Shown here piece by piece: positions 24,855 to 62,160 of a DNA stretch of 64,000 nucleotides (positions within the stretch are counted from its first letter, which is position 1; each line of letters opens with the position of its first letter). The DNA is taken from the IMG/VR virus record IMGVR_UViG_3300037042_006844, positions 122,556 to 186,555 of that record, one strand, 5' to 3'. The notes beneath the pieces are model-generated. The model was not told the origin of the DNA. It worked only from the letters and a program-made list of their open reading frames with translations, and ran no database searches. Source of the stretch: a virus. Position numbers and translations under genes: made by a program.

Positions 24855-26051
24855 TCAATTGACACACGACCCTAAAGGGTCGGTGCTTGCCAGAGAAGAA
24901 CCTCTGACGATTGGTTGATTGACAGCAACCTGTCCATCGAGTGCGGAGCACGAGATGGAGTGTTCTTTGTCATATCTAAAAGTGATATTGTTCGCAGCAT
25001 TTAGGTCTGCGTCCAATACGACTTTATCAAGTCCATAATACCTACATCCTTTACGGACTCCGTTATCAAGACCACGATGGTCTAATTGGGATGTCCAGTG
25101 CGGATTAACGATGACCACTTGTTTTCCAAGTGATGCTGCCTTGTAGGTCAATATGTTCCTGAGAAGGAAATATGGCATTTGTGAATTGCGATTATTAAAT
25201 CTTCGTCCTTTGAACTTGGATTTAATCTTGGTCAAATCCTCAATCACAATGGTATTTGCCTTTGTGGTGAGAAGATGATTTACAACATTGTGTATGTAGT
25301 TCTTTGAAAAATGGTGTTCACGTCTGCGGAGTTTGGTTTGCTTAACTCTGGTAGAATGTGATTTGTGAGATTGGAGTTTTCTCTTGTTCCAACGTATCTT
25401 ACGTTTGGTTCGGTTAAACTCATTGCCTTTGATGATAATGCCTTCACTGGTAGAAGCAAGTCGTTTGAGTCCCAAATCAACTCCAATACATTTTTTGTTG
25501 TCTTGGAATGTTGTGGTATCGTCAAATACAATAGAGAGGAACACTCTATCGTCTCTTACAAAAAGAGAAGGGTCTTTGAGTTTGTATTTTGAAAATAATT
25601 CGTTGACCTTATTATACTTGAGAAGTTTGGCAGTGATACGACCATTACAAGTTGTCAGTTTAATGGCGTCTTGACCAATCCAAGTATAGATGCGAGTGTC
25701 CAGTTGGATGTTTAGTCGGTTTGTCTCAACTGGTTCTGTGATTTTATGGCAATTGGAACGAAGAGATTTGTATTTTGCAACCACGTCTTGTTCTGCCTTA
25801 ATGACAAACTGACTTGGAAGCATTGGAAGTTGTTCTCGAACCATCTTATAACATCTTTGGTGAAGAGGCATAAGACCATTACAGGACTTCATTCCAAATC
25901 GGATTTTAGATATGATATTGAAAGCATCACGTTTCAACGATAGTGATTTGATGAGAGATTGTTTATCCTCATCATTTTCAAAAATCAGTTGAACATTGTA
26001 TGTTTTCATTATTACTGGATATACATATTGTGAAGAAACAGAAAACAACAA
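24855..26051 (-). CDS. tnpB: TnpB-like RNA-guided nuclease (compact lineage without a canonical CxxC zinc ribbon)
   Basis: RuvC-like motifs (IGVDLGLKRL, …IVIEDL…, DADLNAANNI). The likely start is the internal Met of MKTYNVQLIF. Confidence 0.75.
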   Translation of the reverse strand: MLFSVSSQYVYPVIMKTYNVQLIFENDEDKQSLIKSLSLKRDAFNIISKIRFGMKSCNGLMPLHQRCYKMVREQLPMLPSQFVIKAEQDVVAKYKSLRSNCHKITEPVETNRLNIQLDTRIYTWIGQDAIKLTTCNGRITAKLLKYNKVNELFSKYKLKDPSLFVRDDRVFLSIVFDDTTTFQDNKKCIGVDLGLKRLASTSEGIIIKGNEFNRTKRKIRWNKRKLQSHKSHSTRVKQTKLRRREHHFSKNYIHNVVNHLLTTKANTIVIEDLTKIKSKFKGRRFNNRNSQMPYFLLRNILTYKAASLGKQVVIVNPHWTSQLDHRGLDNGVRKGCRYYGLDKVVLDADLNAANNITFRYDKEHSISCSALDGQVAVNQPIVRGSSLASTDPLGSCVN

Positions 26052-26130
26052 ACTATTTTGAGAAAGTGAGATATTTTCGTTGCTCCTCCCCTACCCTAAA
26101 GGGATAGGGGTTTCCGCAACGAGTGAGAAT

Positions 26131-27237
26131 ATGAAGATAGACATTTCAGCAATTGACCGCTCACAATTTATGGTGCATGAGCATGTTGTGAACGGCGAGG
26201 TCGTTTATTTGGTTCACCCAAAAAATATGGGAGTAAAATGGACTAATGACAATATACATTTGAGATCGAGTATATGGGACAGCGATGGCAATTTGGTGAG
26301 TGCCAGCTTCAAAAAATTCACCAACTGGGGAGAGAATCCTGAGAATTTTCCTGTTCCAGAGTCGTTGCGAAACGCATGTGTTGTGGAGAAGCTCGACGGA
26401 AGCACTTTAATTGTCAGTAAGTATAAGGGCAATTATATTCTTAGAACCCGTGGAACCACAGATGCTGCCAAACTGGACAATGGTTATGAGTTGGAGCAGT
26501 TTAAGCAGACCATTTTGCCTAAACTGTTGGATGTTCATTTGGTTGCTGGAGATACGTGGAAGTATTCATTCTTGTTTGAGTGGGTCAGTCCCGTAAACAA
26601 AATTGTATTAAACTACGGAGATTCTCCAGACTGGTTTTTGATCGGTATCATTTATCATGGGGACTATTCTTTGATTGATCAACTTACGTTGGACAATTTA
26701 GCTTGGCAACATGGTTTGAAACGCCCAACTGTTTACAGCTTTCCAACCATTGAGCAATTATTGAAGGATGTTGATGCTTGGAAGCTCAAGGAGGGCGTGG
26801 TCGTTTACAGCAATCGTGATCAAATGCTGCACAAAGTCAAGGGGGCGTGGTATCTTGCATTGCACCACATGAAGAGCGAGTTGGCGAGTGTTGAGAAAGT
26901 GATGGATGTTTGGTTGGATCAAAACATGCCTACATACAATGCTTTTTATGATTACATTGCGACCACGTTCGATTTTGAGTTGGCAGAGCAGTGCCGTGGA
27001 ACCATCAGCAATCTTTGTGATGCTCGTAAAGAGGTTGATAAGATTGTTGCTGCGATGGCAGATTTCGTGGAGTCGAAAGTGCGTTGTCTGCCGTCACGCA
27101 AAGAGCAAGCACAGCTTGTATTGGGTTCTTATGGTAACACCAACCGTTCGGCGTATGTGTTCGCACTACTCGACGGCAAGACGCTAACTAAAGATCAATA
27201 CAAGAAATTGATGTTCCAAGTAATAATGAAAAAGTGA
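26131..27237 (+). CDS. rnlA: RNA ligase 1 (T4 RnlA/gp63 family)
   Basis: Motif I VVEKLDGSTLIVSKYKGNYILRTRGT (T4: LTKEDGSLVS…KSKGS). Also FKKFTNWGENPE, FLFEWVSPVNKIVLNY and EGVVVYS…HKVKGAWYLALH, which match T4 Rnl1 blocks. ATG at 26131; the track's upstream start lies inside the IS hairpin. Confidence 0.75.
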   Translation: MKIDISAIDRSQFMVHEHVVNGEVVYLVHPKNMGVKWTNDNIHLRSSIWDSDGNLVSASFKKFTNWGENPENFPVPESLRNACVVEKLDGSTLIVSKYKGNYILRTRGTTDAAKLDNGYELEQFKQTILPKLLDVHLVAGDTWKYSFLFEWVSPVNKIVLNYGDSPDWFLIGIIYHGDYSLIDQLTLDNLAWQHGLKRPTVYSFPTIEQLLKDVDAWKLKEGVVVYSNRDQMLHKVKGAWYLALHHMKSELASVEKVMDVWLDQNMPTYNAFYDYIATTFDFELAEQCRGTISNLCDARKEVDKIVAAMADFVESKVRCLPSRKEQAQLVLGSYGNTNRSAYVFALLDGKTLTKDQYKKLMFQVIMKK

Positions 27238-40158: not shown

Positions 40159-41556
40159 ATGAATAAAAACATCTGTTTAACTACTGACAGCTACAAGCTA
40201 AACCATTGGAATCAATACCCTCGTAACACCGAGATTGTGTATAGTTATTTCGAGTGTCGCAAAGGAGCAACCTTCGCCGAAACCCCGTTCTTCGGGCTTC
40301 AATACATTATTAAAAGCCACCTTGAGGGCGCAGTCGTGACCAGGGAGAATATTGAGAAGGCAGCTAGGCTTTGCAAATTCCATTTTGGCGACGAGCGTTA
40401 CTTCAACCGTGAGGGCTGGGAATACATCCTCAATAATTGGGGAGGTAAACTTCCAGTCGTTATCAAGGCTGTTGAGGAGGGAACTGTGGTTCCGGTCAAC
40501 AACGTGTTGATGACCATTGAGAATGTGGGCGGTGCCATGACGGCTTGGCTCACCAATTTCCTTGAGACGATTTTGTCCCAAGTATGGTATCCCACAACCG
40601 TTGCAGCTTTGAGCCGTGAGGTCAAAAAGAATATCAAAGAATATCTTGATTTAACCAGTGAGGGCGGACTGCTCAATTTCGGACTGCATGATTTTGGGTT
40701 CCGGGGGGCATCGTCTTGGGAATCTGCTGGTATTGGTGGTGCGGCTCATCTAATCAACTTCCTTGGCACCGATACTTTGGTCGCGATGGAGGTCGCCATG
40801 AACTATTACAATGCAAACCTCGAAGGATTAGCATACAGTGTGGCAGCAACCGAGCACAGTGTGATGACTGCTTTGGGCAAGGACGGTGAGGAAACGGTCG
40901 TCGAGAATCTGCTCAATGAATATCCCACGGGTATTCTTTCTGTGGTCTCCGATAGCTACGACATCTACAATTTTGTTAACAACATCGTTGGACGCAAATT
41001 TAAGGATTGGATTCTTGAGCGTGATGGTGTGTTCGTGGTTAGACCAGATTCCATTACTCCGAGCCATCCAACTCCTGAGCAGGAAATGGTTTGGATTATG
41101 TGGAGTCTTTGGGACAATTTTGGTGGCATTATAAACAGCAAGGGATTTAATGTTATCAATCCCAAGGTTCGTGTTCTTTGGGGCGATGGAATCGATTTGG
41201 AAGGTATCAAAAAGATTCTGTGTGCTGTTGCCGATGCTGGATTTGCAACCGAAAATATCGCATGTTTCGGAATGGGTGGCGGACTCTTACAGAAAGTCAA
41301 TCGTGATACACAGCGTTGTGCATTCAAATCGTCTGCACAGTATCGCAACGGTCAGTGGTTTGATATTTTCAAGAGTCCCAAGGATATTTCCAAGGCTTCC
41401 AAAAAGGGCAAGCTCAAGCTCACCAAGATTGACGGCAAGTTCGTTACTGTTGGTGAAAACGATCCCGGTGAGGATTATTTGAAGGTTGTGTTTACGAATG
41501 GTGTGCTGGTCAAGGAAATTGACTTTGCAACCGTTCGCAAGAACGCTGCTCTATGA
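40159..41556 (+). CDS. nicotinamide phosphoribosyltransferase family protein (NAMPT/NadV; possibly the Namat of a NARP1 pathway)
   Basis: Full-length match to the NAMPT family: LTTDSYKLNHW, VYSYFECR, FGLQY, KAVEEGTVVP, HDFGFRGASS, GTDT, EHS, VVSDSYDIYN, RPDSI, GDGID, FGMGGGLLQKVNRDTQRCAFK and EIDFATVRKNAAL. Confidence 0.85.
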   Translation: MNKNICLTTDSYKLNHWNQYPRNTEIVYSYFECRKGATFAETPFFGLQYIIKSHLEGAVVTRENIEKAARLCKFHFGDERYFNREGWEYILNNWGGKLPVVIKAVEEGTVVPVNNVLMTIENVGGAMTAWLTNFLETILSQVWYPTTVAALSREVKKNIKEYLDLTSEGGLLNFGLHDFGFRGASSWESAGIGGAAHLINFLGTDTLVAMEVAMNYYNANLEGLAYSVAATEHSVMTALGKDGEETVVENLLNEYPTGILSVVSDSYDIYNFVNNIVGRKFKDWILERDGVFVVRPDSITPSHPTPEQEMVWIMWSLWDNFGGIINSKGFNVINPKVRVLWGDGIDLEGIKKILCAVADAGFATENIACFGMGGGLLQKVNRDTQRCAFKSSAQYRNGQWFDIFKSPKDISKASKKGKLKLTKIDGKFVTVGENDPGEDYLKVVFTNGVLVKEIDFATVRKNAAL

Positions 41557-42422: not shown

Positions 42423-43403
42423 ATGAACGTGAACACTCTAAAGTTATTTGCGGGAACCAGCAACGTTCCACTTGCTGAACGTATAGCTTCCAATTTTTTG
42501 AACTCCAAACTCGGCGATATTTTTCACCACAAATTTCCCAGCGGAGAAACATATTGCCAATTTCGTGAGAATATTCGTGGGTGTGATGTGTTTTTGATTC
42601 AAAGCATCACTGCTCCCGCCAACGAAAATTTGATGGAATTGTTGGTGATGGCGGATGCTGCTAGACGCGCCAGTGCAGACCGCATTACTGCAATCATTCC
42701 CTATTTTGGCTATGCCAGACAAGATAGAAAAGAGAAAAGCAGGGTGCCGATCACTGCCAAGCTCGTTTTGGACTTGATCGAAGCGAGCGGAATTGACCGT
42801 GTGGTAACTATGGATTTGCACAGTCCACAGGTCAGTGGCTTCACCAACCTTCCGTTCGACCATCTGACCTTTGAACCCGTATTGAACAATTGGATTAGAA
42901 ACAAATACCATAGTTTGGCTTTGCGAGACAGTGTTATTTTGATGGCACCCGATGTTGGAGCCGTCAAACGTGTGGAAAAATACGCAACCACGCTTGGCAC
43001 TGACTTTGGATTCATCAGCAAAAAGCGTGTGGGTGATGATACGGTTGAATTGCAAAGCATTGTTGGTGACGTGGCTGACAAGCACGTTGTTATCATCGAT
43101 GATCTGACCGAGAGTTGCGGAACCATGATTCAAGCTGCCAAGGCTTGCAAACACAATGGAGCCAAAAATGTGACATGTGCGGTGACTCATGGAGCTTTCA
43201 CGAATATTGGTGTGGAACGTTTGTGTGAAACATCCAGCATCGATCATTTGGTTCACAGCAACACAGTGAATCATGCATGGGACACAAACATGGATATGTG
43301 CAAAGACCCTCGCAGCATCACACAGCTTGATGTCAGCATGTTGTTTGCCAAAGCAATCAGCAGCATTCACAACAACGAAAGCATCAGTGAATTATTTGTA
43401 TGA
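42423..43403 (+). CDS. ribose-phosphate pyrophosphokinase family protein (PRPS, or the ADPR pyrophosphokinase Adps of a NARP1 pathway)
   Basis: PRPS architecture: N-terminal domain, VVTMDLHSPQVSGFTNLPFDHL (flexible loop) and VVIIDDLTESCGTMIQAAK (PRPP-binding loop). The latter deviates from the canonical DDMIDTAGT. Confidence 0.8.
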   Translation: MNVNTLKLFAGTSNVPLAERIASNFLNSKLGDIFHHKFPSGETYCQFRENIRGCDVFLIQSITAPANENLMELLVMADAARRASADRITAIIPYFGYARQDRKEKSRVPITAKLVLDLIEASGIDRVVTMDLHSPQVSGFTNLPFDHLTFEPVLNNWIRNKYHSLALRDSVILMAPDVGAVKRVEKYATTLGTDFGFISKKRVGDDTVELQSIVGDVADKHVVIIDDLTESCGTMIQAAKACKHNGAKNVTCAVTHGAFTNIGVERLCETSSIDHLVHSNTVNHAWDTNMDMCKDPRSITQLDVSMLFAKAISSIHNNESISELFV

Positions 43404-43657: not shown

Positions 43658-43732
43658 GGGGTCTAAGCTTTAATGGTGAAGCAAGCGGCTTTTAACCGCT
43701 AGAAGACGGATCGTTACCGTCAGGCCCTACCA
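43658..43732 (+). tRNA. tRNA-Lys (anticodon UUU)
   Basis: Manual fold. Acceptor stem GGGGTCT/AGGCCCT with G1-U72 and U5-G68 wobble pairs. D arm GCTT-TAATGGTG-AAGC. Anticodon stem-loop AGCGG-CTTTTAA-CCGCT. T arm GACGG-ATCGTTA-CCGTC. ACCA encoded. Confidence 0.65.
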
Positions 43733-43748
43733 AATTTACAGTTAAAAT

Positions 43749-43824
43749 GGGGTTATCGTCTAATGGCTAGGACGGGAGACTTTCAATCTCCAAATCGTGG
43801 GTTCAATTCCCCGTAGCCCTACCA
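43749..43824 (+). tRNA. tRNA-Glu (anticodon UUC), with a T stem that pairs poorly
   Basis: Acceptor stem GGGGTTA/TAGCCCT (with wobbles). D arm GTCT…GGAC. Anticodon stem-loop GGAGA-CTTTCAA-TCTCC. T loop TTCAATT. ACCA encoded. Only 3 bp of the T stem pair in my fold. Confidence 0.45.
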
Positions 43825-44154
43825 TTTTCACTGTCAGGTCAATAATGACAGACCGTTAGCAATAAGCGGTGTCAATGTGCAAAAAAATTCAAGTGGTATA
43901 GCACATCTGACGTTATAGATTCCACTTGATGGTGGAGGGGCGCGGAATAGCCCCCTAGACAAACAGATTGACGGATTGATATAATCGAAGGATATTATAT
44001 CTAATGCAACAGATAAATCCGATATAATGGTTTGTCGAGAGTTTGACATAACTCTACAACAACATATGTCTGGTTGCGGGGATGAGCCAATGGTGTCTCG
44101 GTTATCCGATTGGATCGAGATTCAATAACCCTACAATCGGACCAATTTTATAAT

Positions 44155-44231
44155 TGCGGAATAGAGTTCTGGTGAACTCCGGTGTCTCATAAGCACTCGC
44201 TAGAAAAGTTCGATTCTTTTTTCCGCTACCA
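44155..44231 (+). tRNA. tRNA with anticodon CAU (Met or Ile2 type); mismatch at positions 1:72
   Basis: D arm GAGT-TCTGGTGA-ACTC. Anticodon stem-loop GGTGT-CTCATAA-GCACT, with G-U pairs. T arm AAAAG-TTCGATT-CTTTT. Acceptor 3' strand TTCCGCT plus ACCA. Confidence 0.5.
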
Positions 44232-44236
44232 ATTTC

Positions 44237-44330
44237 GGTTCTGTAGTTTAACTGGTAAAACCCCATACTTATAATATGGTAATCGCTAGATGTGCGTGAC
44301 TTCTCGGTTCGAATCCGAGCAGAACCACCA
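44237..44330 (+). tRNA. class II tRNA with a long variable arm and an apparent UAU anticodon
   Basis: Acceptor stem GGTTCTG/CAGAACC plus A and CCA. D arm GTTT-AACTGGTA-AAAC. Anticodon stem-loop CCATA-CTTATAA-TATGG. Variable arm of about 23 nt with a CGC/GCG stem. T arm CTCGG-TTCGAAT-CCGAG. Confidence 0.55.
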
Positions 44331-44394
44331 AATTTATGACGAACGTGTCATAAAAAAACAAAGTTACATTGAATTAATACTAATATAATAGAAT

Positions 44395-44721
44395 ATGAAA
44401 AAGATACTTCTAACAGTTGCAACCCTCTCTCTTCTTTTGACCGCTAGTGCGGTTGATACCAAGGAACTCTACGATTCACAATGCTCCAAGTGTCATGGAA
44501 CAAATGGCAATGGTGTGACCAAGATGGGTCAAAAGCTCAATGCGAAGGATTGGACCGATGTCAAGATTCAAGCCGCAATGACCGAGACCAACATGGTCAA
44601 GGCAATTAAGGTGGGCATTAAAGATGCCGAGGACAAGACTCGCATGAAGGCATATTCAGATATGACTGATGCCGATGTGACGAATTTGGTTACGTATATC
44701 AAAACCTTCAAAAAGCAATAA
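44395..44721 (+). CDS. small secreted c-type cytochrome
   Basis: Signal peptide and a single CSKCH haem-binding motif (CxxCH). Confidence 0.65.
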   Translation: MKKILLTVATLSLLLTASAVDTKELYDSQCSKCHGTNGNGVTKMGQKLNAKDWTDVKIQAAMTETNMVKAIKVGIKDAEDKTRMKAYSDMTDADVTNLVTYIKTFKKQ

Positions 44722-44739
44722 CATCGTATATAACATCGT

Positions 44740-45069
44740 ATGAAGAAATCATTGATGCTCGGGGTTTTGATTCTCAGCGGAATGTTGTGTCAAGCACAAA
44801 ACGCTGGAACCAACGAATTGTATAACAGCAAGTGCAGCAAGTGCCATGCAAAAGATGGCTCGGGCAACACACTGATGGGCAAAAAGTATAGTGCGAAAAA
44901 CTATACAGATGCAGCCGTCCAAAACAAGCTTACTGATGAAGCTTTTGATAAGTCCCTCAAAGAGGGTTACACCGATGCCGAAGGCAAGAAAGTAATGCAG
45001 GCTTTTCCAGAGCTTACGGCACTGGAGCGCAAGGAACTCATCAAAACGATGCGGTCCTTCAAGAAATAA
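44740..45069 (+). CDS. small secreted c-type cytochrome, a paralogue
   Basis: Signal peptide and LYNSKCSKCHAKDG. Paralogous to 44395..44721. Confidence 0.65.
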   Translation: MKKSLMLGVLILSGMLCQAQNAGTNELYNSKCSKCHAKDGSGNTLMGKKYSAKNYTDAAVQNKLTDEAFDKSLKEGYTDAEGKKVMQAFPELTALERKELIKTMRSFKK

Positions 45070-45088
45070 GATTGACATATCAATTTAT

Positions 45089-45161
45089 GCGGAATTAGTG
45101 TCATGAGGAGCACGGCTATCGACCAGATAGCAAGGTTGGTGCAAGTCCAAATTCCGCTCCA
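45089..45161 (+). tRNA. degenerate tRNA-like element with G at position 33, an ACC anticodon loop and a 4-bp T stem; possibly a pseudo-tRNA
   Basis: Acceptor stem GCGGAAT/ATTCCGC plus U and CCA. D arm GTGT…GCAC. Anticodon stem-loop GCTAT-CGACCAG-ATAGC. T arm TTGG-TGCAAGT-CCAA. Confidence 0.3.
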
Positions 45162-45169
45162 CTTTTTCA

Positions 45170-45245
45170 GGGCTCTTAGCTTAATTGGTTAAGCAGCAAA
45201 CTCATAATTTGTTGAGTGGGGGTTCGAGTCCCTCAGGGCCCACCA
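45170..45245 (+). tRNA. tRNA-Met (anticodon CAU)
   Basis: Acceptor stem GGGCTCT/AGGGCCC (with U-G). D arm GCTT-AATTGGTTA-AAGC. Anticodon stem-loop GCAAA-CTCATAA-TTTGT. T arm GGGGG-TTCGAGT-CCCTC. Discriminator A plus CCA. Confidence 0.7.
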
Positions 45246-50544: not shown

Positions 50545-51090
50545 ATGAATGTCCACGATCACCTAAAGCCGTTAACGGTAACGGAGATCAAAACTTATTA
50601 TCAGTCAAACACGATACCAGCAGCATCAGCCATGATGCACGTAACTGGGGATTTCAATCTGTCCACGTTGATTCGTAACAGCAACTTTTTTGGTTATGAG
50701 AAGGTATACTATGTGGGCGGTAGCAAGCAGTATGATCGTCGTGGCACCGTTGGAACACACAATTACGTCGATGTTAACTTCATCAAGACCGAAGAGGAGT
50801 TCGTCAAGGTTATGCGTGAGGATGGTTATAAGATAATTGCAATTGAAAACAACATAGAGCATCCATCCGACAGTTTTTTTAAGTTTTTCGATGCAATCCA
50901 AAACGTTGCTGAATTTGGCAAGCCCATCTTCATTTTTGGCGAAGAACAGCGCGGTCTCAGTGATTATATGCTGTATAACAGTGACCACATTTTGTTTATA
51001 CCAGGTAATGGGACCGTGCGCAGTCTGAACGTGGGGACTGCCAGTGGCATAGTTTTGTCATATTATTACGCCCGTTATTTTATGAAATAG
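50545..51090 (+). CDS. SpoU/TrmH-family (SPOUT) RNA 2'-O-methyltransferase
   Basis: IIAIENNIEHP, PIFIFGEEQRGLS and FIPGNGTVRSLNVGTASGIVLSYY match SPOUT motifs I-III. Confidence 0.65.
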   Translation: MNVHDHLKPLTVTEIKTYYQSNTIPAASAMMHVTGDFNLSTLIRNSNFFGYEKVYYVGGSKQYDRRGTVGTHNYVDVNFIKTEEEFVKVMREDGYKIIAIENNIEHPSDSFFKFFDAIQNVAEFGKPIFIFGEEQRGLSDYMLYNSDHILFIPGNGTVRSLNVGTASGIVLSYYYARYFMK

Positions 51091-51200
51091 CTCAGGGGGT
51101 GGTGTTGATTTTTATAGTTGACACCCGCCCATCTATGATCTATGATCCATTTATGCAGAACACAAACAAAAAATTTGACAAAGACCCGATTGGTTCCAGA

Positions 51201-52046
51201 ATGAAATCTTCTTACGAGGATCGGACTAGATATTGTCTGCCTCGTAGAACATACACCATTTTGCGTCTCGATGGCAAATCGTTTCATTTTTACACCCAAG
51301 ACCTCGACAAACCTTTTGATGCGGGTTTTATCGAAGACATGAATCGAGCCGTTGTCAACACGATTCATGAAATTTCACAAGGTGTTGCTTTTGCCTACGC
51401 ACAGTCTGACGAAATTTCAATTCTGCTCACCGATTTTGAGAATGATCAAACAGATGCTTGGTTTGGTGGCAATATTCAAAAAATGAGTAGTGTTGCTGCC
51501 AGCATTATGACTGCTCAATTCAACCGTTTCAGACATATTAGACATTACAACCAAGTTCTTGGGACTTTGAATTTGGCAGACCCAACAATTGCTGCGGATG
51601 TGAATGCAAAAAATCGACTGTCGCCAATTTGGCTGCCGTATTTTGATTGCCGAGCGTTTACCATTCCCGACAGAACCGAAGTTATGAATTATTTTCGGTG
51701 GAGGCAGCAGGATTGCATTCGCAACAGTTTGAGCATGGTCGCACAAAGCATGTTCAGTCACGGCGAATTACAGAATAAAAGCCAAATTGACATGCACGAA
51801 ATGTTGCACCAAAAAGGTGTGAACTGGGCAACCGATTATACCGCTGCCCAGAAGAACGGTAGAATTTTTGTGAAAGAAACCAAACCGACTGAACATATGA
51901 GCAATGTGATAAGTTGGGAGGCTGATATGGCGAACTACAAAGTGGTTCCGGTTCCAACGCACATCGTAAAATGGCAAGCCAATGAAGCTTGGGTCTTTAG
52001 CAAAGACGAAGGCAAACTGCTTGACATGATTCCTAAATATGCATAA
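51201..52046 (+). CDS. Thg1-like protein (tRNA-His guanylyltransferase / 3'-5' polymerase family)
   Basis: TYTILRLDGKSFHFYTQDLDKPFDAGFIEDMNRAVVNTIHEISQGVAFAYAQSDEISILL aligns with the Thg1 core (RVDGRAFHKFS…KPND…DIVLAYGQSDEYSF). Start placed at MKSSYED, by analogy with the Thg1 N-terminus; the track ORF starts at 51099. Confidence 0.7.
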   Translation: MKSSYEDRTRYCLPRRTYTILRLDGKSFHFYTQDLDKPFDAGFIEDMNRAVVNTIHEISQGVAFAYAQSDEISILLTDFENDQTDAWFGGNIQKMSSVAASIMTAQFNRFRHIRHYNQVLGTLNLADPTIAADVNAKNRLSPIWLPYFDCRAFTIPDRTEVMNYFRWRQQDCIRNSLSMVAQSMFSHGELQNKSQIDMHEMLHQKGVNWATDYTAAQKNGRIFVKETKPTEHMSNVISWEADMANYKVVPVPTHIVKWQANEAWVFSKDEGKLLDMIPKYA

Positions 52047-60848: not shown

Positions 60849-62160
60849 CTATGAACTACCCACCTGCTAAAGCAGGTGGGTTTCCACCGCAATAGTTATG
60901 AGTTTCTATCGGGTAGTTCCTACCCGTATTAAACGTTGTCTTTGGAAATGAGAAGTCCAAGATATTCTTGGCAGCATTCACATCTCTATCGTGTTTCTCA
61001 TTACAATCTGGGCAAGTCCATTCTCTATCATTTAATGTAAGAGAATGATTAACATATCCACAATGAGAACACGTCTTACTGGATGGTTCAAATCTACCTA
61101 TTTTTAGGAAGTTCTTACCATACCAGTCGCTTTTATATTGGAGCATATTTACAAATTTTCCCCAAGCATAATCTCCTATGAGTTTATTAGTTGGTGAATA
61201 GTTGTTCTTCTGCATCCCCCGAATGGTTAAATCCTCAATACAGATATTACCAATTTGGTTATCATTGGTTAGTTTGTATGAGAGTTTATCCAAGAAATCT
61301 TTGCGTTGTCTTGTTATTTTAGAATGGAGTTTGGTTATCTGCTCTTGCTTGGAGATATGAGCAGTAGAACCTTTAGTGAGTTGCTCCAAATCCTGTTGGT
61401 GTTTAGTAAGTTTATCAGCAGATTGTTTCAATACCTTCGGGTTCTCAATCTTTGTTCCATCATTCAGAGTAAGAAATGTTTTTACTCCAAAATCTATTCC
61501 TATTGCTTTATCCTTTTTTGGTGTTGGTTTCTTTGATAGTTCTTTTTCAACCTCTACAAGAATGGAAACATAGTATCGTTTATCTCTGTCTTGGGATACG
61601 ATTGCTTGTTTAATCGTTCCTTCTGCTTGTCGGTCAAAGATACATTTAATGCCTCCACGAAACTTTGGAATGACTAATCGCTTTCCATCATAGTTCAACT
61701 TAATGTTGTTATTAGTCATTGGGACAACGAACGATTTACGAGCATACTTCTTCGACTTAAACTTTGGAAATCCAGCATTGGAACGAAAGAAGGAAGTATA
61801 TGCTCTATCCAAGTTGAGGATGGATTGCTGTAGCGATTGAGAACCTATCTCACTCAACCATTCATTTGTCTTTTTCAACTTTGGAAGTTCAGTTGCCATA
61901 TCCTGCCAGTTCAATGTTTTCTTGGTTTCTTTGTAATGCTTAATCTTTACTTCAAGGAAATGGTTGTATATCCATCGGCAGTGTCCAAAATGCTTGGACA
62001 AAAGAACCTCTTGTTCCTTGGTAGGATATATTCTGTATTTGTAAGCAACGTTATACATTCTACAACATACATATCATTCACTTTCTAAAAACGATTAATT
62101 ATTTTTCAATGGGTCGCATTCATCCCATATGGGGTTTCTGCTCCCTCAAAGATAAATATA
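60849..62160 (-). mobile_element. IS200/IS605-family element carrying only tnpB (IS-2)
   Basis: TnpB 60856..62058. Perfect TAAA-loop hairpin CCCACCTGC-TAAA-GCAGGTGGG at 60859-80, which encodes the TnpB C-terminus. Hairpin CCCATATGGGG plus TTTCTGCTCCC beyond the start (62108-62160). Boundaries are approximate. Confidence 0.45.
60856..62058 (-). CDS. tnpB: TnpB (OrfB_IS605 type, with a zinc ribbon)
   Basis: YKYRIYPTKEQ N-terminus, DFGVKTF (RuvC I), CIEDL (RuvC II), CSHCG…CPDCN zinc finger and DRDVNAAKNI (RuvC III). Confidence 0.8.
   Translation of the reverse strand: MYNVAYKYRIYPTKEQEVLLSKHFGHCRWIYNHFLEVKIKHYKETKKTLNWQDMATELPKLKKTNEWLSEIGSQSLQQSILNLDRAYTSFFRSNAGFPKFKSKKYARKSFVVPMTNNNIKLNYDGKRLVIPKFRGGIKCIFDRQAEGTIKQAIVSQDRDKRYYVSILVEVEKELSKKPTPKKDKAIGIDFGVKTFLTLNDGTKIENPKVLKQSADKLTKHQQDLEQLTKGSTAHISKQEQITKLHSKITRQRKDFLDKLSYKLTNDNQIGNICIEDLTIRGMQKNNYSPTNKLIGDYAWGKFVNMLQYKSDWYGKNFLKIGRFEPSSKTCSHCGYVNHSLTLNDREWTCPDCNEKHDRDVNAAKNILDFSFPKTTFNTGRNYPIETHNYCGGNPPALAGG

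Follow-up and report, generated by a model that had tools for sequence, protein, structure and literature searches.

The stretch of viral DNA considered here (the window) comprises 64,000 nt, positions 122,556 to 186,555 of the IMG/VR virus record IMGVR_UViG_3300037042_006844, and carries at positions 44237-44330 a transfer RNA (tRNA) gene with the anticodon UAU, which decodes AUA. In its long variable region lies a second arm, built like an anticodon arm, with GAU, the major tRNA-Ile anticodon, in its loop. This two-arm design recurs across a family of phage tRNAs and may divide decoding and isoleucine identity between two arms of a single molecule.

The standard bacterial AUA decoder is tRNA-Ile2, in which TilS converts C34 to lysidine (L), a modification that serves both decoding and recognition by isoleucyl-tRNA synthetase (IleRS). 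The window tRNA shares its codon, its proposed amino acid, and A73 with tRNA-Ile2, which differs in having a single anticodon arm. The bacterial isoleucine identity set consists of A73, C4-G69, U12-A23, G16/U20/U21, C29-G41, G34 or L34, A35, U36, t6A37, and A38 (PMC9976931). E. coli IleRS prefers LAU over UAU by ~360-fold in kcat/Km (PMC3575796), and E. coli-type IleRS depends strongly on t6A37 (PMC9976931, PMC3575796). A TilS-independent bacterial AUA decoder is found in Mycoplasma mobile, whose tRNA-Ile2(UAU) carries an unmodified UAU of the kind that an ordinary IleRS rejects for its U34 (Taniguchi et al., PMC3575796). This is a class I tRNA, however, and the adaptation lies in the IleRS (Arg865, Zn-binding domain) and the ribosome (PMC3575796). 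As a phage must use the host enzyme, the solution proposed here lies in the tRNA, where a second arm would offer G34.

Two groups of long tRNAs with UAU have been described. Nematode nev-tRNA-Ile(UAU) likewise breaks the Leu/Ser/Tyr rule by pairing this anticodon with a long variable arm (Hamashima et al., PMC3333845, PMC4300185). Its body, however, is eukaryotic and genuinely class II, an anticodon-blind leucyl-tRNA synthetase (LeuRS) charges it with leucine, and no anticodon-like loop has been reported in its variable arm. The allo-tRNA-UAU species are long tRNA-like genes with five-stem junctions which are abundant in soil and sediment metagenomes and to which the main text of their description assigns no function (Mukai et al. 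2016/17, PMC5389517). According to that text, allo-tRNAs have an 8/4 or 9/3 acceptor/T-stem geometry, G73 or U73, and a presumed serine identity. Its authors suggested that allo-tRNA-UAU is non-translational, and the main text mentions neither a GAU loop nor isoleucine identity.

Class II tRNAs (Leu, Ser, Tyr, Sec) resemble the window tRNA in having an extra helix between the anticodon and T arms. This helix is tolerated by the ribosome and EF-Tu. Class II arms on the contigs of the two-arm tRNAs end in unconserved loops of 3-4 nt and lie 0-3 nt from the T stem, whereas the two-arm tRNAs have a 7-nt GAU loop and a spacing of 5-6 nt. Anticodon-arm mimicry outside tRNA has a precedent in the E. 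coli thrS mRNA operator, which is recognised by a synthetase. Mimics of this type illustrate look-alike recognition in an unusual setting, but they regulate translation of an mRNA, whereas here the mimic lies inside the tRNA that is to be charged. 'Anticodon-like' elements outside tRNA have been discussed (PMC9976931). No account of a second anticodon-like arm was found in the openly accessible full-text literature, including the main text of Mukai et al., and the two-arm tRNA family appears to be undescribed as such.

A phage tRNA(UAU) with a second anticodon-like arm

ARAGORN calls a tRNA-Ile(tat) of 94 nt at exactly 44237-44330 (+), one of five tRNA calls in the window. The Rfam tRNA model RF00005 matches 44237-44327 with 60.2 bits (gathering score 29, E 1.6e-10), end to end over model positions 1-71 and with a 21-nt insertion in the variable region. 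An earlier note, made from the letters of this DNA alone, had described an intact, phage-encoded UAU tRNA with a clean cloverleaf, a 7-bp acceptor stem, and a ~23-nt variable region; direct reading of the sequence and both programs agree with it (Table 1). Its doubt whether UAU was a misfold or a wrong anticodon register is settled, as ARAGORN and Rfam both give UAU. U8 and A9 follow the acceptor and C26 follows the D stem. What the note overlooked is the GAU at the anticodon position of the extra-arm loop.

The second arm is not apparent from this single sequence. The 23-nt stretch that separates the anticodon stem from the T stem forms no strong hairpin when folded alone; the minimum free energy fold misplaces the arm and the centroid leaves the region open. 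Its structure, 3 bp (CGC/GCG) closing the loop UAGAUGU, was established only by comparison with 144 relatives, which makes the stem pairs equivalent to C29-G41 (C44284-G44296), G30-C40, and C31-G39. The UAGAUGU loop recurs in a viral locus (L601), there on a 4-bp stem. The decoding arm has A29-U41 and thus no C29-G41; its loop has A37 and A38, a possible t6A site. The window copy has every feature of the two-arm family, namely a UAU arm, a 7-nt GAU loop, C29-G41, a linker of 5-6 nt, 7/5 geometry, and A73.

Distribution and structure of the two-arm family

Viral contigs were first scanned for CTTATAA followed, after a gap of 20-36 nt, by GGTTCGAATCC. This gave at least 120 loci with tightly clustered spacings, ~100 of the listed loci being called by ARAGORN as tRNA(tat) of 85-99 nt. 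The same pattern was applied to prokaryotes with one genome per species, where members with a GAU loop were found mainly in metagenome-assembled genomes (MAGs) of Acidobacteriota and Rhodospirillaceae. After two further scans the collection held at least 166 unique long tRNA(UAU) sequences. Family membership was defined by a GAU-centred 7-nt second loop closed by at least 3 bp, and 144 of the 166 sequences have one. The family comprises at least 144 unique sequences from at least 209 viral loci and at least 15 MAG or bacterial-genome loci; family and locus counts are lower bounds throughout, and fractions of 144 refer to the unique members collected. Recurrence in at least 209 viral loci places the architecture far beyond chance.

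With the second arm numbered as an anticodon arm, the consensus loop is Y-A-G-A-U-U-A (Y-A-G-A-U-N-N in a first dissection), on a stem of 4-5 bp whose sequence differs between lineages. Position 32 is a pyrimidine (n=144), position 33 is A in 137/144, positions 34-36 are GAU by the membership definition, position 37 is U in 122/144, and position 38 is A in 93/144. Within the stem, pair 31-39 is C-G in 132/144 and pair 29-41 is C-G in 138/144 (96%). Pairs 30-40 (GC 88, UA 21, AU 15, UG 15, CG 5) and 28-42 (GC, CG, GU, UA) vary and covary across the family, and 27-43 is mostly mismatched. The linker before the GAU arm is usually about 2-4 nt long and that after it is 5-6 nt in 139/144, the length of a class I variable loop. 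With this 3' spacing, the D arm is followed by N26, the UAU arm, a short linker, the GAU arm, a variable loop, and the T arm, a predicted layout in which two anticodon-type arms stand in tandem at a five-way junction.

The remainder of the molecule is that of a tRNA. The decoding loop is YUUAUAN, and the 29-41 pair of the UAU arm is unconstrained. The acceptor has 7 bp in 142/144 members, with compensatory changes at all seven pairs, and the T stem has 5 bp in 144/144, with 49:65 paired in all. The D arm is canonical in 83/144; a subgroup of 61/144 has a short 16-nt D region, with a D stem and tetraloop, and a long anticodon stem. A G1.U72 wobble tops the acceptor in 105/144 members, and the window copy has G1-C72.

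Pairing was counted on a gap-free concatenation of fixed-length modules (A2, 89 sequences), because a full-length MAFFT alignment (A1) misplaces gaps after the anticodon loop. In A2, 98.2% of cells of the whole structure are paired, compared with 58.8% after shuffling and at most 43% with slid partners, and the covariation score is 0.981 versus 0.203. The GAU arm is 98.6% paired with double-sided changes at 4/4 pairs; the percentage paired is partly so by construction, as at least 3 bp was a selection criterion, while the covariation is not affected. RNAalifold, run on the full-length MAFFT alignment, predicts the second hairpin without prior assumptions.

The UAU and GAU arms are coupled. Scans anchored on the second arm and the T arm, with the anticodon left free, found YUUAUAN loops with UAU in 100/101 and 42/43 of the unique sequences, although this coupling could partly reflect common descent since the scans were seeded with family stem sequences. 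The GAU loop also has a recurrent peculiarity. It combines A33 with U37 in 118/144 members, and G with C in three compensatory cases, whereas 1532/1763 real anticodon loops show the reverse arrangement, U33/A37. This complementarity suggests that GAU is shown as a closed triloop unable to make a U-turn. Inspection of the alignments by eye revealed no conserved AUC partner for the GAU loop in the D loop or the linkers.

Ordinary long variable arms on the same contigs look different. Among 234 unique Leu, Ser, and Tyr tRNAs the variable-arm loops are mostly 3-4 nt, with GAU in one, and in nearly all of them the hairpin lies 0-3 nt from the T stem. The earlier note had taken the long variable arm for a class II arm, which does not fit a 7-nt loop with a 6-nt 3' linker. 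It correctly observed that none of Leu, Ser, and Tyr uses UAU, but its suggestion of an isoacceptor of these with a mutated anticodon finds no support in the 4-bp class I-like D stem, in A73 rather than the Ser-type G73, or in the form of the arm.

Several other long tRNAs were encountered in the scans. Bacterial genomes also contain a class of long tRNA(UAU) unrelated to the two-arm family (L135, L137, L153, L168, L180, L184, L192, L196, L198, L208, L216, and L225). These tRNAs lack a GAU loop and combine a D arm of Ser/Leu type with an ordinary class II arm, and G73 is frequent among them; they are candidate AUA readers charged with serine, akin to allo-tRNA or nev-tRNA. A UAU tRNA in L004 (7871-7962, +) has the second loop UGGACGA, whose central GAC is a valine anticodon; this single case is either a drifted copy or a different pairing. 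In L147 (2639-2729, -) and L157 (4323-4413, -) a 91-nt paralogue with a similar acceptor and T arm adjoins a family member. Its anticodon loop is disrupted (ARAGORN 'aat' and 'aaaa') and it lacks a GAU loop; it is a degenerate duplicate or else a distinct RNA. Extra arms of another kind are seen in L279 (also L029, L038, L068, L116, and L346), where phage tRNAs Thr(UGU), Lys, Met, Glu, Gln, and Ile(GAU) of 83-88 nt in total have moderately long variable arms with GAAA-type tetraloops; in L279 this holds for nearly every tRNA.

Isoleucine identity elements and AUA as an isoleucine codon

The discrimination of IleRS against U34 provides a rationale for a two-arm design. The decoding arm has U34, whereas the second arm has G34-A35-U36 in a 7-nt loop. 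A73 is present in the window tRNA and in 142/144 family members. U12-A23 is present in the window D stem and in 50/83 members with a canonical D arm. The C29-G41 pair that is nearly fixed in GAU arms occurs in only ~25% of the UAU arms of the same tRNAs. On the same contigs it is found in 58% of tRNA-Ile(GAU) and 11/12 short class I tRNA-Ile(UAU), but in 10% of 1530 non-Ile tRNAs.

AUA accounts for 197 of the 15,626 codons in 63 open reading frames (ORFs) of the window, that is 12.6 per 1000 codons and 17.7% of isoleucine codons. Window proteins were aligned to all collected viral loci and the aligned residues were tallied by window codon. At 28 AUA positions the aligned residues are I 0.44, V 0.22, and L 0.12, compared with I 0.49, V 0.21, and L 0.09 at 301 AUU/AUC positions, and L 0.63 and I 0.08 at 395 leucine positions. 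AUA aligns like AUU/AUC and unlike leucine codons, so it is an isoleucine codon in this phage, and the aligned residues speak against recoding of AUA to leucine or serine. The earlier note had proposed that the tRNA reassigns or competes for AUA; the reassignment is not supported by this result, and competing for, or supplying, AUA decoding survives it. A UAU tRNA charged with leucine or serine would mistranslate in this phage.

Parallel designs in suppressor tRNAs

Two exploratory scans revealed the same layout in long suppressor tRNAs. In 30 of 59 unique long amber suppressors (CUA), the second arm bears a 7-nt loop whose central triplet is CUG (26) or UUG (4), both glutamine anticodons, as in CUCUGAA, UUCUGAG, CUCUGAC, and CUUUGAA. 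Their bodies are Gln-like, with G73 in 21/30, a weak or mismatched 1-72 pair, and G2-C71 in 29/30, and the linker is 5-6 nt in 25/30. They occur among viral loci L381-L500 (e.g. L387, L397, L404, L409, L429, and L442). Half of 34 long opal suppressors (UCA; 17/34) have the second-arm loop CUCCAAA or GUCCAAA, in which CCA is the tryptophan anticodon. These bodies are Trp-like, with G73 in 17/17, A1-U72 in 15/17, and the acceptor AGGGGC...GCCCCUG, which we take to resemble that of E. coli tRNA-Trp. They lie among viral loci L501-L600 (e.g. L506, L524, L530, L534, L539, and L541). The second loops of the Gln and Trp analogues keep the canonical U33 and A37.

TAG-to-Gln and TGA-to-Trp are known phage recodings; how the suppressors are charged was left open, and phages rarely encode a synthetase (Borges et al.). 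Phage CUA and UCA tRNAs insert glutamine and tryptophan in an E. coli extract, in a study which does not mention a second arm (2025 preprint, PMC12636597). Three independent pairings (GAU, CUG/UUG, and CCA) are now apparent, and in each the second arm has what reads as the anticodon of an anticodon-reading synthetase. These pairings form the strongest comparative argument for the second arm as an identity module. Whether this amounts to a general architecture of phages and mobile tRNA arrays, with identity and decoding on two tandem anticodon arms, that arose at least three times (Ile/AUA, Gln/UAG, Trp/UGA), is an even call.

Proposed mechanism

The favoured explanation, to which a somewhat better than even probability is given, is that the UAU arm decodes AUA while the GAU arm supplies identity elements for charging by the host IleRS. 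The 5' UAU arm, one nt after the D stem and with a Y32-U33...A37 loop, would read AUA without lysidine or TilS. The 3' GAU arm, separated from the T stem by a loop of class I length, would present the tRNA-Ile(GAU) elements G-A-U at 34-36 and C29-G41. Host IleRS would recognise this arm together with A73 and the tRNA body, resulting in isoleucylation. The swapped A33/U37, probably closing a GAU triloop, would keep the GAU arm from decoding on the ribosome. Either arm could stack on the D stem within the putative five-way junction, as each has canonical spacing to one neighbour.

Several observations weigh against this mechanism. The C4-G69 pair of the isoleucine set is absent from the window tRNA (U4-A69) and is present in 41/144 family members. 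The GAU loop has U37 (122/144; G37 in the window) and so lacks A37. Within the family the second arm of the window copy is among the weakest, its 3 bp being the shortest stem class (6/144), with a flanking U.U mismatch, G37, and U38. In 15 viral loci a short class I tRNA(UAU) shares the contig with a long two-arm one (L013, L077, L093, L100, L102, L107, and others). If the UAU arm stacks on the D stem, the anticodon-binding domain of IleRS would not be near an arm in the variable region, and an alternative stacking or a flexible junction would be needed. In the main text of Mukai et al., six allo-tRNA-UAU converted to CUA gave no suppression in E. coli (PMC5389517), although isoleucine insertion would have been invisible there since the reporter accepted only serine or alanine. 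To these are added the two limits given above, on pairing percentages and on common descent of the coupled arms.

If true, a spare cognate anticodon arm would bypass the anticodon-identity barrier to code change while leaving the enzymes unchanged. This would account for the charging of tRNAs that bear non-cognate anticodons, suppressors included, by unmodified host IleRS, glutaminyl-tRNA synthetase (GlnRS), and tryptophanyl-tRNA synthetase (TrpRS), and thus for stop-codon recoding. Phage AUA decoding would be independent of host TilS, and allo-tRNA-UAU species set aside as probably non-translational would gain a function. A compact design rule is also suggested for suppressor tRNAs or those that reassign sense codons. 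As for annotation, two-arm tRNA genes bear inconsistent labels at present; ARAGORN sometimes reads the GAU arm as the anticodon, and filters on length or score may discard such genes.

Alternative explanations

It is possible, if unlikely, that the second arm is recognised by another factor, such as a U34/A37 modification enzyme, a phage factor, or a processing enzyme, with IleRS reading the UAU arm directly. UAU tRNAs risk misreading AUG (PMC3575796), which would give such a factor a purpose; a SpoU-family 2'-O-methyltransferase is encoded in the window, and the existence of short class I phage tRNA(UAU) means that direct UAU recognition is possible in some hosts. However, recognition by another factor leaves unaccounted for the cognate anticodon triplet in three independent systems, and equally the presence of the Ile-specific C29-G41 in the second rather than the UAU arm.

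A role outside translation is improbable. The tRNA-like RNA could be a decoy or sponge for IleRS or a tRNA-Ile nuclease, or an element linked to mobile DNA or toxin-antitoxin systems, the last of these being what Mukai et al. proposed for allo-tRNA-UAU (PMC5389517). The main text of Mukai et al. describes six UAU-to-CUA variants as inactive and two as toxic (PMC5389517), and the tRNA-repair enzymes of the window (Rnl1-like, Thg1-like) hint at conflict over tRNAs. The blindness of the reporter to isoleucine again limits what that inactivity implies. Moreover, features needed for processing, EF-Tu binding, and decoding are kept, including covarying 7/5 helices, U33/A37, the T loop, A73, and often CCA, and the gene, located within tRNA clusters and nearly complete arrays, is the one AUA decoder evident there. 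A pure decoy needs no conserved UAU, and the Gln and Trp analogues are the very suppressors that recoded phages need.

It is very improbable that the RNA is a class II-type tRNA charged by an anticodon-blind LeuRS or seryl-tRNA synthetase (SerRS), placing leucine or serine at AUA as recoding or deliberate mistranslation. The long variable region fits such a tRNA, and A73 is also the leucine discriminator (PMC9976931). Nematode nev-tRNA(UAU) is leucylated in vitro (PMC3333845, PMC4300185), allo-tRNAs insert serine at leucine codons according to the main text of their description (PMC5389517), and the separate bacterial long tRNA(UAU) with Ser/Leu-like D arms and G73 do exist. However, serine identity needs G73, which the 142/144 members with A73 lack, and the AUA sites of this phage are Ile-like, not Leu-like. 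The D arm is class I-like, the loop size and 3' linker are unlike those of the 234 class II arms, and charging by LeuRS or SerRS leaves the invariant GAU, the fixed C29-G41, and the exclusive pairing with UAU unaccounted for. Membership of the allo-tRNAs, as the main text of Mukai et al. defines them, is excluded by the 7/5 geometry and A73 of the window tRNA and the family. Allo-tRNAs are described there with a Sec-like D arm and a lengthened anticodon stem, whereas the window tRNA has a 4-bp D stem, an 8-nt D loop with GG, and a 5-bp anticodon stem; the short-D subgroup of the family may nonetheless overlap with allo-tRNA-UAU.

There is hardly any probability that both loops act as anticodons in alternative conformations, reading AUA as well as AUC/AUU, since, although the second arm has anticodon-arm dimensions and correct T-arm spacing and the second loops of the Gln and Trp analogues are fully canonical, the A33 and U37 of the Ile-family GAU loop depart from the near-universal U33/A37, and their complementarity, with its three G-C compensatory cases, suggests a closed triloop.

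Genomic context

The two-arm tRNA(UAU) lies in a cluster of five tRNA genes (Table 1). Its upstream neighbour, a tRNA(CAU), is atypical in having a U1.U72 mismatch, G4-C69, G5-C68, and a weak anticodon stem; it falls below the Rfam tRNA gathering score and its top match is tRNA-Sec (30.9 bits). A tRNA(CAU) is the commonest immediate neighbour of family members, with 105 cases, mostly with C4-G69 and none with initiator marks. From these features the partners could be either tRNA-Ile2-type tRNAs or Met competitors for AUG.

Family members are also found in MAG arrays of 24-34 tRNAs within ~8 kb that cover nearly all amino acids, where they lie beside tRNA-Ile(GAU). In the arrays the family member is the only evident AUA decoder, several lacking a CAU gene in the stretch examined, and this position would be that of a working AUA decoder. 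Large tRNA arrays occur in L121, L125, L147, L157, L207, and L212 (contigs of Acidobacteriota and other MAGs) and in the viral L601; they are probably mobile or phage-derived arrays binned into MAGs.

Table 1. Features of the two-arm tRNA(UAU) and of other genes in the window
Feature	Positions	Strand	Basis
Whole two-arm tRNA(UAU) gene, 94 nt, CCA encoded	44237..44330	+	ARAGORN, Rfam RF00005
Acceptor 5' strand GGUUCUG; 7/7 bp with 44320-44326 (CAGAACC)	44237..44243	+	sequence
D arm: stem GUUU/AAAC, 4 bp including U12-A23; loop AACUGGUA, 8 nt, G18 G19	44246..44261	+	sequence, Rfam
Decoding arm: stem CCAUA/UAUGG, 5 bp; loop CUUAUAA, U33, A37	44263..44279	+	sequence, ARAGORN, Rfam
Anticodon UAU within decoding arm	44270-44272	+	ARAGORN, Rfam
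Inter-arm linker UAAU; final U opposite U44297 (U.U mismatch)	44280..44283	+	sequence
Second, anticodon-arm-like arm: CGC/GCG stem, 7-nt loop UAGAUGU	44284..44296	+	comparison with relatives
GAU in second-arm loop	44289-44291	+	sequence
Unpaired linker UGACUU, class I variable-loop length	44297..44302	+	sequence, family spacing
T arm CUCGG-UUCGAAU-CCGAG	44303..44319	+	sequence, Rfam
Acceptor 3' strand CAGAACC, discriminator A73 (44327), CCA (44328-44330)	44320..44330	+	sequence
Five-gene tRNA cluster, including the two-arm tRNA(UAU)	43658..45245	+	ARAGORN, Rfam
tRNA-Lys(UUU)	43658-43732	+	ARAGORN
tRNA-Glu(UUC)	43749-43824	+	ARAGORN
tRNA(CAU), 5 nt upstream of the UAU tRNA	44155-44231	+	ARAGORN
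Further tRNA(CAU)	45170-45245	+	ARAGORN
Small secreted c-type cytochrome, first of tandem pair	44395-44721	+	CxxCH; Pfam Cytochrom_C, Cytochrome_CBB3
Small secreted c-type cytochrome, second of tandem pair	44740-45069	+	CxxCH; Pfam Cytochrom_C, Cytochrome_CBB3
NAMPT	40159-41556	+	
PRPP synthetase	42423-43403	+	
SpoU/TrmH-family 2'-O-methyltransferase	50545-51090	+	
Thg1-like tRNA 3'-5' polymerase	51099-52046	+	
T4 Rnl1-type RNA ligase	26080-27237	+	
TnpB/IS605-OrfB-like transposase	60856-62058	-	PHROG 506, E 3e-115
TnpB/IS605-OrfB-like transposase	24855-26051	-	PHROG 506, E 9e-32

The window, with 39-46% G+C, belongs to a large uncultivated phage and encodes an rIIA-like protein, a DNA ligase, a helicase, and large repeat-rich tail-fibre-like proteins. 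No close relatives were found among GenBank phages, the matches being generic tRNA-Glu/Lys similarity and ~26% identity to rIIA. The PRPP-synthetase gene has no tRNAs beside it in 17 related viral contigs, whose PRPP synthetase is 68-76% identical, so the position of the tRNA cluster is lineage-specific. These contigs nevertheless entered the codon comparison given above. No phage IleRS or TilS was found among ~30 of the 63 window ORFs scanned, the window being part of the genome.

Other genes of the window are of interest in their own right. The two tandem cytochromes sit inside the tRNA cluster, between its last two tRNAs, and are unusual auxiliary genes for a phage. NAMPT and PRPP synthetase form an NAD+ salvage pair just upstream of the cluster, and the pair is kept in the 17 related contigs with 68-76% identity. 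The SpoU-family, Thg1-like, and Rnl1-type genes together suggest tRNA repair or modification, possibly directed against host anticodon nucleases. Of the two TnpB-like transposases, the one at 60856-62058 is AUA-rich, with 10 AUA codons.

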